A stretch of 64,000 bases of DNA from an uncultured Clostridia bacterium. Lineage in GTDB: Bacteria; Bacillota; Clostridia; Oscillospirales; Acutalibacteraceae. The stretch covers positions 7,712 to 71,711 of the forward strand of contig CALZID010000004.1 of NCBI GenBank assembly GCA_945787805.1. The letters run 5' to 3'. Within the stretch, counting starts at the first letter, position 1, and each line of letters opens with the position of its first letter. The notes beneath the pieces were generated by a model, which had not been told where the DNA came from, ran no database searches, and saw nothing but the letters and a program-made list of their open reading frames with translations. Shown here in pieces: positions 43,392 to 50,918 of the stretch. The position numbers and the translations under genes were made by a program.

Positions 43392-43443
43392 AAAGGCGCT
43401 CATTTCGGTACGGAAAGCTTTCCATACTGAAATGAACGCCTTT
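43392..43443 (-). promoter_or_regulatory. leader hairpin/attenuator of the GOGAT-glnA-ANTAR operon
   Basis: The minus strand reads AAAGGCGUUCAUUUCAGUAUGGAAAG/CUUUCCGUACCGAAAUGAGCGCCUUU, a 26-position stem with 1 mismatch and 2 G-U pairs, then UAAUUUU. Its 5' end, GCAAAGGCGU, matches the motif seen in the other nitrogen leaders. Confidence 0.6.
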
Positions 43444-43457
43444 GCTCATTATGGCAT

Positions 43458-43486
43458 ATAATACACCAAAAGATTTTTCGTGTCAA
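43458..43486 (-). promoter_or_regulatory. sigma-A type promoter of the GOGAT-glnA operon
   Basis: TTGACA-17 nt-TATTAT on the minus strand. Confidence 0.65.
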
Positions 43487-43537
43487 TCCGCAAATTAAAT
43501 ATTTGAATATTTTTTTGAAAAAATTTTAAAAAACGGG

Positions 43538-43566
43538 TTGACAAACTTTTTTTGTAGGTGTACAAT
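43538..43566 (+). promoter_or_regulatory. sigma-A type promoter of gdhA
   Basis: TTGACA-17 nt-TACAAT. Confidence 0.7.
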
Positions 43567-43575
43567 GCAATGCAT

Positions 43576-43631
43576 AAAAGGCAAAGGCGTCTTTAAGCGG
43601 TGAATAAGCTCACCCTTAAAGGCGCTTTTTT
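43576..43631 (+). promoter_or_regulatory. gdhA leader: conserved motif plus intrinsic terminator
   Basis: AAAAGGCAAAGGCGUCUUU lies at 43576-43594. The terminator is GCGUCUUUAAG...CUUAAAGGCGC plus UUUUUU, with an inner GGUGA-AUAAGC-UCACC hairpin. An alternative small hairpin, AAAGGC[AAAGGC]GUCUUU, would sequester the terminator's 5' arm. Confidence 0.6.
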
Positions 43632-43653
43632 GTTGTTATAGGAGGAAACACAA

Positions 43654-44988
43654 ATGAGTTATGTAGATGAAGTTTACGAGCGAATAGTTCGAGAAAATCC
43701 CAATGAGCCCGAATTTCATCAGGCGGTTAAAGAAGTTCTCGATTCTTTAAGACCGGTTGTCCAGGCAAATGAAGAACAGTTCAGACGGGATGCTCTTCTT
43801 GAAAGACTTGTAAACCCGGAAAGACAGATTAAATTCCGTATTCCATGGATTGATGATAACGGTAATGTACAGGTTAATACAGGCTACCGTGTACAGTTTA
43901 ACAGTGCAATAGGACCTTACAAGGGCGGACTTCGTTTGCACCCGTCGGTAAATCTCGGTATTATAAAATTCTTAGGCTTTGAGCAAATTTTCAAGAATTC
44001 GTTGACAGGACTTCCGATTGGCGGCGGTAAAGGCGGTGCGGATTTTGACCCCAAGGGAAAATCGGACCGTGAAATAATGAAATTCTGCCAAAGCTTTATG
44101 ACAGAGCTTTCTAAATATATCGGTGCGGATACCGATGTTCCCGCAGGCGATATTGGTACGGGTGCCCGTGAAATAGGCTATATGTACGGTCAGTACAAGA
44201 GAATCAGAGGCCTTTTTGAAGGTGTACTTACGGGTAAAGGCCTTTCCTACGGCGGCTCACTTGTTCGTACGGAAGCTACAGGTTACGGACTTCTCTATAT
44301 AACCGAAGAAATGCTTTTACACAACGGACATGACATTAAAGGAAAAACAGTTGCTGTTTCAGGTGCGGGAAATGTTGCGATTTACGCTATTGAAAAAGCA
44401 ATTCAATTAGGTGCAAAAGTAGTTACATGTTCGGATTCTAACGGTTGGGTTTATGACCCGGACGGTATTGATGTTGCGGCATTAAAAGAAATCAAAGAAG
44501 TTAAAAGACAGCGTCTTACAGAATATAAGAATTACAGACCTGATTCGGAATATCACGAGGGCAAAGGCGTATGGTCAGTTAAGTGCGATGTTGCATTCCC
44601 GTGCGCTACTCAAAATGAACTTACACTTGATGATGCAAAGCTTCTTGTTGCAAACGGAGTAACCGCAGTTGCCGAAGGCGCTAATATGCCGACTACTCCC
44701 GATGCTGTTGACTATTTGCAGGAAAACAATGTTTATTTCTTGCCCGGTAAGGCTGCAAACGCCGGCGGTGTTGCAACATCGGCATTAGAAATGTCACAAA
44801 ACAGTGAAAGATTGCAATGGAGCTTTGAAAAAGCAGACAGCAAGCTTAAAAGTATTATGGTGGATTTATTCCATCGTATTGACGGTGCCGCAAAGAAATA
44901 CGGTATGGACGGCAACTATGTAGCCGGTGCAAATATCGCAGGCTTTGAAAAAGTTGTTGATGCTATGAATGCGCAAGGCATTGTATAA
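43654..44988 (+). CDS. gdhA: NADP-specific glutamate dehydrogenase
   Basis: 444 aa with the GDH signature [14 protein letters not shown] and the Rossmann motif VSGAGNVA. Confidence 0.95.
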
Positions 44989-48971: not shown

Positions 48972-48995
48972 TTTATAGATTAGGGGTTTACGATT

Positions 48996-49148
48996 ATGAA
49001 TGAAGAAAATTCAAATAATTTAAAGGAACAAGCCTCAGAGTTTCAAATAAGTGATTATTATAAAAATGAACTTTATAAAAAGGCTTGGCTTGAAAATGAT
49101 ACGGGTATTTCCAACGAGTTTTGTCAAAATACCACTACTTGGGATTAA
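48996..49148 (+). CDS. 50-aa small ORF (hypothetical)
   Basis: AGGGG lies 8 nt before ATG at 48996. Translation is MNEENSNNLKEQASEFQISDYYKNELYKKAWLENDTGISNEFCQNTTTWD. It is followed by a 12-bp hairpin at 49157-49191. No homolog recognised. Confidence 0.3.
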   Translation: MNEENSNNLKEQASEFQISDYYKNELYKKAWLENDTGISNEFCQNTTTWD

Positions 49149-49214
49149 ATAATAAGCTGTACAGAGGCTGTGTAATACGGCTTCTGTACAGTCATACATA
49201 AAGGAGAATATATT

Positions 49215-50795
49215 ATGTGTTCTATTATGGGATATTGCGGTGACTCCGCTGAAAAAGAATGTTTTTTCAAGGGCTTTGAAAAAACTGTTTCGCGCGGTCC
49301 TGACGATACAAGAATAATTGATACCGGAAAAGGCTTATTAGGCTTTCACCGTCTGGCAATTATGGGACTTACACCAAAGGGTATGCAACCCTTTCGCCTT
49401 GAAGACAGCTATTGCATTTGCAACGGTGAAATATACGGCTTTGAAAAATTAAAGGATGAATTAAAAGAAAAATACACTTTTGAAAGTGACTCGGATTGTG
49501 AAATCTTACTCCCCCTTTACAAAGAACACGGTGTGGATATGTTCGCAATGCTTGACGCCGAATATGCGCTTGTAATCTATGACGGTGAAAAAAAGGAATA
49601 TATTGCCGCCCGTGACCCTATCGGTATCCGTCCGCTTTATTACGGGTTTGACAGCTCCGATACTATTCTTTTTGCAAGTGAGCCTAAAAACCTTGTGGGT
49701 ATAGCAGATAAGATTATGCCTTTCCCACCAGGACATTATTATAAAGACGGCGAATTTGTTTGCTACTGCGACATTGCAAATGTAGATAGAGTTATAGATG
49801 ATGATTTGGAAACAGTATGCAAAAACATTTGTGAAAAATTAACATCGGGTGTTGAAAAAAGACTTGTTGCCGATGCAAAAGTCGGTTTCTTGCTTTCGGG
49901 CGGTCTTGATTCTTCATTGGTTTGCGCCATCGCCGCAAAGAAGAGCGCCTCCCCTATTAAAACCTTTGCAATAGGTATGACCGAAGACGCCATTGACCTT
50001 AAATATGCCCGTCAGGTTGCTGATTTTATCGGCAGTGACCACACTGAAATATTTATGACGCCCGAAGAAGTTATAGCTTCGCTTGAAACAGTAATTTATA
50101 CCCTTGGCACCTTTGATATTACAACTGTCAGAGCAAGTATGGGTATGTATCTTCTCTGCAAGGCAATTCACGAACGGACGGATATTCGTGTGCTGTTGAC
50201 AGGTGAAATCTCCGACGAACTTTTCGGATATAAATATACTGATTTTGCGCCGTCAGCCGACGCTTTTCAAAAGGAATCACAAAAACGAATCAGGGAATTA
50301 CATATGTATGATGTTCTTCGTGCGGACCGTTGCATTTCGGTAAACTCACTTGAAGCCAGAGTACCTTTCGGAGATATTGACTTTGTAAAATATGTGATGG
50401 CGGTAAATCCCGAGTTGAAGCTCAACACCTACGGTAAAGGCAAATATTTACTTCGACACGCTTTTGAAGGACAAGATTTGCTTCCCGATGAGATTTTATG
50501 GCGTGAAAAAGCCGCTTTTTCGGACGCAGTCGGTCACTCAATGGTTGACTATCTTAAAGAATATGCTGAAACGCAGTATTCTGACGAAGAATTCAAAGAG
50601 GGCTGCAAAAAATATTCTCATGCACAGCCTTTCACAAAGGAATCTCTGCTTTACCGTGATATCTTTGAAAAGTATTATCCCGGTCAATCTGAAATGATTG
50701 TTGATTTTTGGATGCCGAACAAGGATTGGGAAGGCTGTAAAGTAAACGACCCCTCCGCCCGTGTTCTTTCAAACTACGGTGACAGCGGAAAATAA
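49215..50795 (+). CDS. asnB: asparagine synthase (glutamine-hydrolysing)
   Basis: N-terminal MCSIMGY (Cys2 Ntn nucleophile) and the PP-loop LLSGGLDSS. Confidence 0.93.
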   Translation: MCSIMGYCGDSAEKECFFKGFEKTVSRGPDDTRIIDTGKGLLGFHRLAIMGLTPKGMQPFRLEDSYCICNGEIYGFEKLKDELKEKYTFESDSDCEILLPLYKEHGVDMFAMLDAEYALVIYDGEKKEYIAARDPIGIRPLYYGFDSSDTILFASEPKNLVGIADKIMPFPPGHYYKDGEFVCYCDIANVDRVIDDDLETVCKNICEKLTSGVEKRLVADAKVGFLLSGGLDSSLVCAIAAKKSASPIKTFAIGMTEDAIDLKYARQVADFIGSDHTEIFMTPEEVIASLETVIYTLGTFDITTVRASMGMYLLCKAIHERTDIRVLLTGEISDELFGYKYTDFAPSADAFQKESQKRIRELHMYDVLRADRCISVNSLEARVPFGDIDFVKYVMAVNPELKLNTYGKGKYLLRHAFEGQDLLPDEILWREKAAFSDAVGHSMVDYLKEYAETQYSDEEFKEGCKKYSHAQPFTKESLLYRDIFEKYYPGQSEMIVDFWMPNKDWEGCKVNDPSARVLSNYGDSGK

Positions 50796-50827
50796 GCAAA
50801 AAATATTAAAAACCTTATGCTAATCAG

Positions 50828-50856
50828 TTGACAAAGCACTCAAAAAAGAGTAAAAT
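50828..50856 (+). promoter_or_regulatory. sigma-A type promoter of the purC operon
   Basis: TTGACA-17 nt-TAAAAT. Confidence 0.7.
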
Positions 50857-50863
50857 GTTTTGG

Positions 50864-50918
50864 AAAAGGCAAAGGCGTCTTTGAGCGATATCTCGAAGTG
50901 TCTCTGCCTTCTTTTTTT
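50864..50918 (+). promoter_or_regulatory. purC leader: conserved motif plus intrinsic terminator
   Basis: AAAAGGCAAAGGCGUCUUU lies at 50864-50882. The interrupted stem pairs AAGGCA..AGG..CUUUGAG with CUCGAAG..UCU..UGCCUU, followed by C plus UUUUUUU. Confidence 0.6.

Follow-up and report, generated by a model that had tools for sequence, protein, structure and literature searches.

A single hexaloop hairpin overlapping the leader terminators of a clostridial nitrogen gene cluster, the predicted binding site of a NitR-like ANTAR protein

In a stretch of 64,000 nucleotides from an uncultured gut Clostridia bacterium (the window), four leaders of nitrogen-related genes are likely to act as protein-dependent transcription attenuators within a single nitrogen regulon, with a NitR-like ANTAR protein as the proposed binder. 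The functional unit is a hairpin of 6-8 bp, closed by a C-G pair and capped by the hexaloop AANGGC. The interpretation given in a preliminary description of this DNA is supported, and the hairpin is most likely a binding site of the neighbouring NitR-like protein (Table 1).

Hairpins, promoters and terminators of the four leaders

The 19-nt box AAAAGGCAARGGCGTCTTT occurs in three exact copies on the plus strand (43576-43594, 45016-45034 and 50864-50882), precisely where they had been described before, and a search of the window allowing up to three mismatches gave no matches beyond these. By chance 0.06 matches are expected (mean of shuffles), and at least three matches were found in 0 of 100 shuffles. 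The fourth leader carries AAUGAGC-AAAGGC-GUUCAUU on the minus strand (43450->43431), with GCAAAGGCGU at 43445->43436. Its long terminator-like hairpin, already recognized in the preliminary description, was confirmed, but the term "related" used there understates the similarity: because the hexaloop, the closing C-G pair and the adjacent G.U pair of the other three copies are all kept on another stem, the GOGAT-glnA leader hairpin is a full fourth member. This differing stem is the best evidence for the hairpin within the window. A covariance model (CM R1), trained on 100 instances that all came from other genomes, found the four copies in the window with 30.6-33.8 bits; the next-best match, located within the purC coding sequence, reached 18.4 bits.

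A scan for the sigma-70-type consensus detected promoters abutting three of the four copies. As noted previously, two boxes follow a TTGACA-17-TAnAAT promoter by 7-9 nt, the promoters ending at 43566 (9 nt) and 50856 (7 nt). Given this distance of 9 nt from the -10 hexamer to the box, the gdhA hairpin is situated at or within a few nucleotides of the transcript start. Among 115 related instances (see below), a -10 hexamer ends 5-13 nt before the hairpin in 60, and the other 55, among them the glnN leader and, where units occur as tandem pairs, the second one, are without an adjacent promoter. Transcripts often begin with the hairpin.

Table 1. Features of the nitrogen gene cluster and its leaders in the window
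Feature	Position	Strand	Evidence and remarks
NitR-like ANTAR regulator	38126..38710	-	Pfam ANTAR E = 1.1e-15; 194 aa, degenerate receiver domain, last operon gene
glnA, GS type I	38746-39957	-	Pfam; regulated GOGAT-glnA stretch 38746..43372
GOGAT subunit, GXGXG	39976-40692	-	Pfam
GOGAT subunit, Glu_synthase	40761-42263	-	Pfam
GOGAT subunit, GATase_2	42263-43372	-	Pfam
GOGAT-glnA-nitR leader terminator	43386..43443	-	MFE -33.3 to -34.1 kcal/mol, z = -9.1; stem 43443->43392, then UUUUAAUUUU
GOGAT-glnA-nitR leader hairpin, "type B" stem	43431..43450	-	CM R1 30.6 bits; AAUGAGC / loop AAAGGC (43443->43438) / GUUCAUU
GOGAT-glnA-nitR operon promoter	43458..43486	-	TTGACA-17-TATTAT, 11/12 consensus; -10 ends 7 nt before hairpin
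gdhA leader promoter	43538..43566	+	TTGACA-17-TACAAT, 11/12 consensus
gdhA leader hexaloop hairpin	43577..43594	+	CM R1 33.8 bits; AAAGGC / loop AAAGGC (43583-43588) / GUCUUU
gdhA leader intrinsic terminator	43583..43631	+	MFE -27.2 kcal/mol, z = -4.8; U-run 43626-43631
gdhA, glutamate dehydrogenase, target gene	43654..44988	+	Pfam ELFV_dehydrog
glnN leader hexaloop hairpin	45017..45034	+	CM R1 31.9 bits; AAAGGC / loop AAGGGC (45023-45028) / GUCUUU
glnN leader intrinsic terminator	45024..45071	+	Terminator scan; MFE -28.6 kcal/mol, z = -6.9; 17-bp stem, UUCG loop, tail GACUAUUUUU
glnN, GS type III	45092-47188	+	Pfam; behind glnN leader
amt-PII fusion	47211-48971	+	Pfam; behind glnN leader
purC leader promoter	50828..50856	+	TTGACA-17-TAAAAT, 11/12 consensus
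purC leader hexaloop hairpin	50865..50882	+	CM R1 32.6 bits; AAAGGC / loop AAAGGC (50871-50876) / GUCUUU
purC leader terminator	50866..50918	+	MFE -21.6 kcal/mol; U-run to 50918
purC, SAICAR synthetase, target gene	50944..51657	+	Pfam SAICAR_synt

The hairpin and the terminator are mutually exclusive. The proposal that the hairpin sequesters the 5' arm of the terminator was right about the overlap, but the terminator helix takes in the whole hexaloop and not the 3' arm alone. In the gdhA leader the hexaloop and the 3' arm of the hairpin form the 5' strand of the terminator, and the purC terminator additionally pairs with the 5' arm of the hairpin, a leader type that recurs in three related loci (L012, L043, L078). 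All six loop bases are paired inside the terminator, with position 4 paired in 114 of the 115 instances, and loop changes are compensated there: an A at position 5 stands opposite U in 13/13 cases, and in the glnN leader the G at loop position 3 is matched by the terminator 3' arm GACGCCCU. The hairpin alone reaches -3.5 kcal/mol (gdhA leader) to -5.2 kcal/mol (GOGAT-glnA-nitR leader), compared to -21.6 to -33.3 kcal/mol for the terminator. Folding of the four leaders gave a terminator-like hairpin in each, with -22.5 to -34.1 kcal/mol and z-scores of -3.2 to -9.1. Since the loop and 3' arm are the 5' strand of a far stronger terminator, termination is the default.

Conservation in related Clostridia and the candidate regulator

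For an examination of the hairpin, sites were picked by loop and terminator alone and compared to controls slid by 1-3 nt. At least five contiguous hairpin pairs were present in 105 of 195 such sites versus 0-1 in the slid controls, and 78.4% of the cells were paired (38-56% in the slid controls). The covariation score of 0.419 exceeded the values for the slid controls (at most 0.18) and was reached by 0 of 500 shuffles. These data back the earlier proposal of an ANTAR-type hexaloop hairpin in competition with a terminator. The stem pairs alternate between AU/UA, AU/GC and GC/AU among classes; most of the covariation traces back to two classes of stem that many sequences have inherited, and therefore represents few independent compensatory events. 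When the stems alone were fixed, the loops found were, in order, AAAGGC and AAGGGC, followed by AACGGC, AATGGC and AAAGAC. It is the loop and not the stem that is constant, with the consensus AANGGC, and the G.U pair beside the closing pair is kept in 100 of 120 cases.

The conservation before nitrogen genes that the preliminary description had called for exists: 115 units of motif plus terminator were identified, present in 49 of 80 related nitR loci, a figure that includes many short contigs and was obtained with strict instance criteria. Of the 48 loci whose flank extends over 7 kb or more, 35 have motif and terminator upstream of nitR and on its strand. In the genome loci, the downstream genes are glnN (51), GOGAT (32), gdhA (12), glnA (7) and purC (3), with guaA, pyrG and purA as further targets; an independent metagenome scan added amt-PII, nadE, glmS and a glutamate symporter. 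Overall, purA, guaA, pyrG, nadE, glmS and amt are the rarer targets, some of them coming from the metagenome scan only. Within the window, glnN and the amt-PII fusion are presumably co-transcribed, being 22 nt apart.

The gene previously assigned to an ANTAR protein indeed encodes one (Table 1), and in related genomes glnA is located directly upstream of nitR in 62/62 loci. The match of its product to Response_reg (25.4 bits) is below the Pfam gathering score; Asn59 occupies the position of the Rv1626 phospho-Asp, and Ser-Ser replaces the acidic pair. According to the alignment, His168 corresponds to Tyr164 and Met176 to Met172 of EutV, and N59, H168 and M176 are invariant among 13 homologues. 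Among the RNA-contact residues, NitR has His for the G4-stacking Tyr164, Glu172 for Arg168 and Cys/Ser for Arg175/Arg177, and judged from these replacements its recognition may be unlike that of EutV.

Known ANTAR systems and alternative readings

The loop had been likened to the A1/G4 loops of ANTAR substrates, and AANGGC with its closing pairs matches the boxes of both GnfR and EutV. In Geobacter sulfurreducens, GnfK/GnfR antiterminate nitrogen-fixation genes, and in vitro binding as well as gnfR-dependent read-through have been demonstrated for the GnfR box CAGGCAANGGCGCC (loop form CAGGC-AANGGC-GCC), which is located just upstream of intrinsic terminators in the nifH, glnK and amtB leaders and overlaps them (Ueki and Lovley, 2010, PMC2995071). 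Both systems have an ANTAR protein of the response-regulator type, the loop AANGGC is identical, and the core GGC-AANGGC-GYC is common to the GnfR box and to GGCAAAGGCGUC and GGCAAGGGCGUC of the window. However, Geobacter belongs to another phylum, uses RpoN-dependent instead of sigma-70-type promoters, controls nif/glnK/amtB instead of gdhA, glnN, GOGAT-glnA and purC, and its GnfR has a true phospho-acceptor activated by the kinase GnfK, a residue for which the window protein has Asn. In Clostridium saccharobutylicum, NitR is reported, in the accounts of Stutz et al. (2007) given in PMC6316151 and PMC4676874, as antiterminator of GS/GOGAT genes under nitrogen limitation, acting at glnA-nitR and gltAB with an antisense RNA also involved. 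There too the ANTAR gene directly follows glnA; compared to the loci named in these accounts the regulon found here is wider, with nucleotide, NAD and hexosamine enzymes.

The canonical dual-hexaloop targets of EutV (eut), NasR (nasF) and AmiR (amiE) (Ramesh et al., 2012, PMC3369931) resemble the window leaders in the A1/G4 hexaloop, the conserved closing pairs, the mutual exclusivity of hairpin and terminator and the association with nitrogen metabolism; the 13-nt EutV box AGCAANGRRGCUY is close to the window loop and closing pairs and also overlaps the 5' part of the terminator. The window hairpin corresponds to P2, the terminator-overlapping hairpin, but a P1 or "recruitment" hairpin is missing upstream and downstream, loop positions 2, 5 and 6 are conserved too, the loop is wholly buried in the terminator helix, and the hairpin sits at the transcript 5' end. 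We regard it as very unlikely that the leaders are nevertheless canonical targets with a degenerate second hairpin, in which the terminator apex would act as P2 or an upstream hairpin as P1. In favour of it, dual-hairpin covariance matches precede GS, GOGAT, amt and PII genes of many Clostridia (PMC3369931, Table S2), and the gdhA leader has another 5-bp hairpin with the 6-nt loop AUAAGC 4 nt past the first one. However, the counts largely refute this reading. The apex loops in the window are AUAAGC, UUCG and CGAUAU, as described before; among related instances they range from 3 to 14 nt and are mostly tetraloops (43), with A1/G4 hexaloops in 4 of about 119. All four read AAAGGC, so that the folding has probably picked up the loop of the motif itself once more. 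Downstream of the hairpin no second A1/G4 hexaloop is conserved among the related instances, and within 45 nt upstream such a hairpin occurs in 1/115 compared to 6.1 expected from shuffles. Moreover, in 60 of the 115 the -10 hexamer precedes the hairpin so closely that another hairpin upstream would not fit into the transcript. The doubt expressed earlier about a second hexaloop was thus justified. The "variant recognition mode" suggested together with it is needless, since the EutV-RNA crystal structure defined the minimal ANTAR site as a single hexaloop, bound by one ANTAR dimer with G4 flipped out, and its authors predicted single-hexaloop sites (Walshe et al., 2022, PMC8934654).

A reader other than an ANTAR protein, be it an RNA-binding protein (for example PII- or GS-associated) or a small ligand in a riboswitch-like attenuator, appears unlikely. 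NitR departs from EutV at several RNA contacts and the loop is conserved beyond the A1/G4 rule, which would fit such a factor, but the core is identical to the box to which the ANTAR protein GnfR binds in vitro, the motif is tightly tied to the nitR operon that it also controls, and a hairpin of about 20 nt and such low stability is without pocket-forming complexity; a search of Rfam for rival elements matched no family, riboswitches included. That the box is a DNA operator for a dimeric repressor is highly improbable, even though AAAGGCGTCTTT is near-palindromic and occupies +1 to +20 relative to strong promoters, AAAGRCGYCTTT differs little from its reverse complement, the leader reads as the motif on both strands in five loci (L032, L033, L044, L048, L076), and a promoter abuts all but one of the copies in the window. 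The type B stem (AUGAGC/GUUCAU) forms no palindrome with the loop and yet retains its pairing in the RNA, the G.U pair conserved next to the closing pair makes sense in RNA only, the orientation to the downstream gene is always fixed with a terminator always following, 55 of 115 copies are without adjacent promoter, and a search for GlnR/TnrA boxes in the cluster found none. Ordinary leader terminators or attenuators, or a dispersed repeat, similar by descent and free of regulation, hardly deserve credence either. The strength of the terminators would let them act unaided, but a constitutive terminator after a consensus promoter would silence essential assimilation genes, the element persists in genomes of Oscillospiraceae, Lachnospiraceae, Christensenellales and the Erysipelotrichaceae type, where it is found ahead of functionally related genes alone, and the 5' arm, idle in most terminators, is still maintained by covariation.

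Proposed mechanism and its precedent

In the antitermination mechanism that we favour, the leader opens with the weak hairpin, whose loop and 3' arm are shared with the long terminator, the U-run of which lies just ahead of the ribosome-binding site. Unbound RNA would adopt the terminator fold and transcription would stop. Active NitR-like protein would grip the hexaloop hairpin once it is transcribed and keep the loop and 3' arm from the terminator 3' strand, whose synthesis follows about 25 nt later; RNA polymerase would therefore read through into gdhA, glnN-amt/PII, purC and the GOGAT-glnA-nitR operon. As nitR lies within a target operon, the regulator is proposed to be autoregulated. The genomic association with nitR suggests that NitR binds the hairpin, and a single hairpin would suffice, itself acting as the antiterminator. 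For EutV both hairpins are needed in vivo, and the current model calls for a recruitment hairpin because transcription leaves little time (PMC8934654); the missing recruitment hairpin speaks against our model, as does the physiologically unusual arrangement of a single positive signal for gdhA as well as GS-GOGAT. By analogy to C. saccharobutylicum NitR, this signal is probably nitrogen limitation. It would reach NitR via a partner protein or ligand and not by phosphorylation; AmiC/AmiR and NasS/NasT, described in PMC8934654 and PMC3795266 as unphosphorylated receiver-like domains under partner-protein control, may serve as a plausible model for the Asn59 pseudo-receiver, with the difference that glnA is the sole conserved gene beside nitR.

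ANTAR attenuators in nitrogen control are already known, and the system described here has precedent. Its main point of interest is the use of one hairpin where the textbook layout has two.

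The leader hairpin and its copies in the window

The 19-nt sequence AAAAGGCAARGGCGTCTTT occurs as three exact plus-strand copies in the window, at 43576, 45016 and 50864, with no further match even when three mismatches were allowed; dinucleotide-preserving shuffles of the window gave a mean of 0.06 matches. Two window copies have the core GGCAAAGGCGUC, and the other two have GGCAAGGGCGUC and AGCAAAGGCGUU. When folded, the plus-strand leaders of gdhA, glnN and purC form the hairpin AAAGGC-AA(A/G)GGC-GUCUUU, and the minus-strand leader of the GOGAT-glnA-nitR operon, in which nitR encodes the ANTAR regulator, forms AAUGAGC-AAAGGC-GUUCAUU. 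The hexaloop is AAAGGC in three copies and AAGGGC in one, on stems of 6-7 bp. Loop, closing C-G pair and neighbouring G.U pair are common to all four hairpins, and the remaining stem varies but pairs; therefore the conserved element is a hexaloop hairpin and not the 19-nt word.

A covariance model from other genomes (CM R1; seven pairs, 100 instances, none from the window) returned exactly four matches in the window above a next match of 18.4 bits. This next match, GGGAAAAGCAAAGAAAGUUUUUGA at 50970-50994 on the plus strand (rough E = 0.0075), is most likely chance, because it lies within the purC coding sequence, 26 nt in, and codes for the beginning of the purC protein. An extra AANGGC-type loop at 29169 on the minus strand, obtained in a window scan for hexaloop hairpins with A at loop position 1 and G at position 4 (A1/G4), was also rejected as chance, since it is situated inside an 813-aa ORF (29113-31554), is closed by an A-U pair and occupies no position for leader function.

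Terminator-like hairpins of -22.5 to -34.1 kcal/mol were predicted in all four window leaders, and for three of them none of 200 shuffles folded equally well. These terminators end at 43631 (gdhA), 45071 (glnN) and 50918 (purC) on the plus strand and at 43386 (GOGAT-glnA-nitR) on the minus strand. At each of the three near-perfect window promoters, 7-9 nt separate the end of the -10 hexamer from the motif copy. The preliminary description, which had listed the three 19-nt copies, two of them 7-9 nt downstream of consensus promoters (both on the plus strand), and terminators or a terminator-like hairpin in all four leaders, is accurate in its coordinates and descriptions.

The amt-PII gene starts 22 nt past glnN without a leader of its own and is presumably under the control of the glnN attenuator. 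No motif was found before asnB (48972-49214), which may therefore be under different control. This plus-strand gap between amt-PII and asnB holds an ORF of ~50 codons (about 48996-49148) and then a long hairpin with nearly perfect pairing, CUGUACAGAGGC...GCUUCUGUACAG (about 49159-49192), which has no U-run and lies directly 5' of the asnB ribosome-binding site.

Features of the nitrogen cluster in the window and of the motif in the related loci
Feature	Position	Strand	Source or value
ANTAR protein with weak receiver domain (nitR)	38126-38710	-	Pfam
glnA (GS type I)	38746-39957	-	Pfam
GOGAT, three subunits	39976-43372	-	Pfam
gdhA	43654-44988	+	Pfam
glnN (GS type III)	45092-47188	+	Pfam
Ammonium transporter-PII fusion (amt-PII), one 586-aa ORF	47211-48971	+	Pfam
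asnB	49215-50795	+	Pfam
purC	50944-51657	+	Pfam
Sigma-70-type promoter TTGACA-17-TACAAT	end 43566	+	consensus scan
Sigma-70-type promoter TTGACA-17-TAAAAT	end 50856	+	consensus scan
Sigma-70-type promoter TTGACA-17-TATTAT	43486->43458	-	consensus scan
CM R1 match	43574-43597	+	33.8 bits
CM R1 match	50862-50885	+	32.6 bits
CM R1 match	45014-45037	+	31.9 bits
CM R1 match	43429-43452	-	30.6 bits
Type A hairpin, 24-nt RNA			AUAAAAGGCAAAGGCGUCUUUAAG
Type B hairpin, 24-nt RNA			AUAAUGAGCAAAGGCGUUCAUUUC
Hexaloop positions paired in terminator, of 115			1: 112; 2: 110; 4: 114; 5: 114; 6: 109
Both-strand motif leaders	L032 8580/8617; L033 3139/3176; L044 3475/3520; L048 4884/4928; L076 5031/5070
Loci with tandem units	L001, L004, L005, L006, L012, L013, L020, L030, L042, L051, L054, L056, L069	-

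Conservation of loop and stem in related genomes

The hairpin was followed through 80 loci (L001-L080) around homologues of the ANTAR protein, one genome per species. Cultured organisms bearing these leaders include Neglectibacter timonensis SN17 (L001), Allobaculum stercoricanis DSM 13633 (L043) and [Eubacterium] hominis (L055). A search that fixed nothing but the stems returned the loops AAAGGC (74) and AAGGGC (15), then AACGGC, AATGGC and AAAGAC, which gives AANGGC as the family consensus. A1 and G4 are invariant in the 115 motif-plus-terminator instances with a C-G closing pair, but the search pattern demanded both; the recurrent loops keep the two positions even when the search fixes the stems only. 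For the stem, sites were chosen by loop and terminator, where the terminator had to pair with the loop and the 5' flank was unconstrained. At least five contiguous hairpin pairs were present in 105 of 195 such sites, compared with 0-1 in controls whose 5' flank had been slid by 1-3 nt. In an alignment of 120 sites, 78.4% of the cells were paired versus 38-56% in the slid versions. The covariation score, a check that the preliminary description had proposed, reached 0.419 versus at most 0.18 in the slid versions, with few independent events behind it, because most changes divide two inherited stem classes. None of 500 shuffles attained these pairing and covariation values. Three stem positions interchange AU/UA, AU/GC and GC/AU, and the G.U pair and the closing C-G pair are retained in 100 and 105 of the 120 sites, respectively.

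In the 80 loci, type A (stem AAGGC/GUCUU, 73 instances) precedes glnN, gdhA and purC, and type B (stem AUGAGC/GUUCAU, 41 instances) precedes the nitR-carrying GOGAT/glnA operon. The stem sequence tracks the gene, with the same class found across families; one possibility is that the two classes are kept through differing affinities. Rarer stem variants are GAAGG/UCUUC, AAGAGC/GUUCUU, UGAAGC/GUUUCA and GAUGAGC/GUUCAUC. The sequence AAAGRCGYCUUU nearly equals its own reverse complement, and therefore the motif plus hairpin reads on both strands in five loci. Three of these, L032, L033 and L044, carry a Clostridia-type nitR cluster under MAG records that say Bacteroidaceae, Muribaculaceae and Eggerthella, labels which probably reflect mis-binning rather than transfer.

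One hairpin in competition with the terminator

The loop and the 3' arm of the hairpin form the 5' strand of the terminator, and across the 115 instances each hexaloop base has a partner in the terminator 3' strand (counts per position in the table). Compensation is found here as well: in all 13 cases with A at loop position 5 the facing base is U, and a G at position 3 has C or U opposite it in 14 of 15. The energy of the small hairpin is -3.5 to -5.2 kcal/mol versus -21.6 to -33.3 kcal/mol for the terminator, whose competing 3' strand begins a median of 25 nt (range 14-68) past the loop. Hairpin and terminator are mutually exclusive, with the terminator as the default fold, and such a competition of folds is how protein-dependent antiterminators are built. 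The loop pairing bears out the earlier proposal that the small hairpin competes with the terminator. The window leaders are single units only. Tandem complete hairpin-plus-terminator units, 59-134 nt apart before one gene, were seen on the minus strand of several related loci (listed in the table) and would act as a double attenuator with a sharper response.

The canonical ANTAR substrate consists of two A1/G4 hexaloop hairpins, P1 and P2, with a spacing of 5-12 nt in eut (PMC3369931). In common with this dual-hexaloop target (Ramesh 2012), the window motif has an A1/G4 hexaloop on a stem of at least 3 bp and overlaps and excludes an intrinsic terminator, but it lacks the second hairpin. The leaders could be read as a degenerate form of the dual hairpin; this is excluded by the following counts. 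Only 4 of about 119 terminator apexes present an A1/G4 hexaloop, tetraloops being commonest (43), and all four read AAAGGC and are probably the motif's own loop found again by the fold. Within the 45 nt upstream, a second A1/G4 hexaloop hairpin was found in 1 of 115 instances versus 6.1 expected from shuffles. Moreover, 60 of the 115 instances have a promoter with its -10 hexamer ending 5-13 nt ahead of the hairpin, so that no transcribed sequence exists 5' of the hairpin there. The architecture is single-hairpin, in line with the earlier doubt about a second hexaloop hairpin, and the one hairpin corresponds to P2, the terminator-overlapping hairpin of the canonical motif.

It is also unlikely that the motif acts as a DNA operator: the G.U pair is conserved, the type B stem is not palindromic, the orientation is fixed and some copies lack a promoter. 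The GlnR/TnrA operator TGTNAN7TNACA in particular occurs twice in the window (1.69 expected), at 23046 and 55440, both outside the cluster. A riboswitch is similarly improbable for a hairpin of roughly 20 nt: with Rfam 15, which includes the glutamine riboswitch, no family matched the motif leaders at gathering score in a search of the whole window, and relaxing the threshold to E up to 5 over 43300-51000 gave chance microRNA-like hairpins only. Elsewhere in the window, curated Rfam models recognised a T-box leader (16332-16560, plus strand, 102 bits), an M-box magnesium riboswitch (24907-25068, minus strand, 101 bits) and an L10 ribosomal-protein leader (1493-1628, minus strand, 76 bits).

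The NitR-like protein, its proposed regulon and related systems

The preliminary assignment of an ANTAR protein to 38126-38710 holds, with a match to PF03861 at E = 1.1e-15 (57.6 bits, cut-off 27.3). The Pfam receiver match is under the gathering score, the phospho-acceptor Asp of Rv1626 aligns with Asn59, and the acidic pair is replaced by Ser-Ser, which together mark a pseudo-receiver of the AmiR kind and make kinase control as in GnfR or EutV unlikely. No kinase gene was noticed in passing beside nitR. In the alignment with EutV, the G4-stacking Tyr164 corresponds to His168 and Arg168 to Glu172, and the hydrophobic plug Met172 is retained as Met176. N59, H168 and M176 are unchanged in 13 homologues (63-100% identity); the nearest named relatives are MAGs labelled Oscillospiraceae, Acutalibacteraceae, Ruminococcus and Eubacteriales.

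In the related loci, glnA ends within 300 nt 5' of nitR in 62 of 62 cases, and motif leaders precede GOGAT and glnA genes. Of 48 loci with sufficient flank, 35 have motif plus terminator upstream of nitR on the same strand, at distances of about 1.4, 4.75 or 6.35 kb, which equal glnA-nitR or GOGAT-glnA-nitR operons. By this association, its gene lying within a motif-led operon, the ANTAR protein is a candidate binder of the hairpin, and control of GS/GOGAT by the NitR-like protein would follow the same line. The finding is real, and the preliminary interpretation of the leaders as ANTAR-type hairpins set against terminators is essentially right, plainly so in its anatomy and putatively in binding. 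The non-phosphorylatable receiver and the constant position right after glnA suggest that the signal may come via GS, PII or a metabolite; if the input is a partner protein or ligand, the natural candidates are PII and GS, whose gene is always adjacent. Binding, signal and physiology are all inferred.

The motif precedes nitrogen genes in relatives, a context likewise proposed beforehand as a check. The genes following 121 hairpin-plus-terminator sites of the loci and the window, in a tally made before the C-G closing-pair filter that left 115 instances and with tandem units counted twice, are glnN (51), the GOGAT amidotransferase subunit (32), gdhA (12), glnA (7) and purC (3). Other genes behind such sites in the same loci are guaA, pyrG, purA and one for a PPDK_N-domain protein. 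An independent metagenome scan with the exact type A 17-mer gave glnN (52), gdhA (7), purC (4), amt-PII (3) and pyrG (3), more rarely nadE (2), a glutamate symporter (2), glmS and a CobQ-type amidotransferase; a terminator was present at 84 of 137 matches, and those without one were set aside as likely chance or coding. Since purC leaders recur in relatives and metagenome, the window purC leader is not an oddity. The putative regulon comprises ammonium assimilation and enzymes spending glutamine, aspartate or ammonia nitrogen (purC, purA, guaA, pyrG, nadE, glmS).

Rather than a new kind, the window element is one more of the nitrogen-control ANTAR attenuators described for Geobacter GnfR and Clostridium NitR and in a 2012 covariance survey; in many Clostridia that survey found ANTAR matches before genes of the GS, GOGAT, amt, PII and asnB types (PMC3369931). 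In vitro, the ANTAR response regulator GnfR binds RNA with CAGGCAAGGGCGCC, and the published GnfR-type box is CAGGCAANGGCGCC (PMC2995071). The window cores GGCAAAGGCGUC and GGCAAGGGCGUC carry the same core, GGC-AANGGC-GYC, and likewise lie just 5' of and overlapping terminators in nitrogen-gene leaders. However, GnfR is phosphorylated by its cognate histidine kinase, whereas the window protein has Asn59 and Ser-Ser. EutV sites share AGCAANGRRGCUY overlapping the 5' part of the terminator (PMC3369931), which the window core matches. NitR of Clostridium saccharobutylicum is reported to antiterminate GS/GOGAT genes when nitrogen is limiting (cited in PMC6316151 and PMC4676874), and the window cluster has the same arrangement with the ANTAR gene after glnA; an equivalent ANTAR-GS-GOGAT cluster of C. 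thermocellum is co-expressed. Protein family, box and nitrogen link are already published, and current understanding is not overturned. Our literature search found no paper on the motif in Oscillospiraceae or Lachnospiraceae and nothing usable on Ruminococcus albus nitrogen transcriptomics. To our knowledge, no earlier account describes a layout that consistently has one hairpin at the 5' end, its loop buried in the terminator. The same appears to hold for the pair of stem classes that go with particular genes, for the pseudo-receiver and for a regulon that extends into the synthesis of nucleotides, NAD and hexosamines.

We tentatively propose, at slightly less than an even chance, that in gut and rumen Clostridia antitermination by NitR-type ANTAR proteins works through one 5'-terminal hexaloop hairpin, without a recruitment hairpin and with the hexaloop as outer strand of the terminator, that the signal possibly passes through GS, PII or a metabolite, and that the regulon extends beyond assimilation. 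The EutV-RNA structure shows a single hexaloop contacted by an ANTAR dimer, where G4 flips out onto Tyr164 and Met172 serves as plug; on this basis one hexaloop became the new definition of the minimal binding site (PMC8934654). Its authors expect single hexaloops to act only without a time limit from the transcribing polymerase, and leave open whether they serve real regulation (PMC8934654). With over 100 naturally occurring instances, the proposed one-hairpin ANTAR antiterminator bears on this question, and, if our proposal is true, the EutV-derived model of two hairpins and successive binding would not be general for co-transcriptional ANTAR action. The 24-nt hairpin plus terminator is also a compact, potentially reusable part. 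Furthermore, the motif provides a sequence-defined nitrogen regulon for a large group of mostly uncultured gut and rumen Clostridia, among them Oscillospiraceae, Acutalibacteraceae and Lachnospiraceae, in which the Bacillus GlnR/TnrA paradigm apparently does not apply, so that gene regulation becomes readable from their MAGs.
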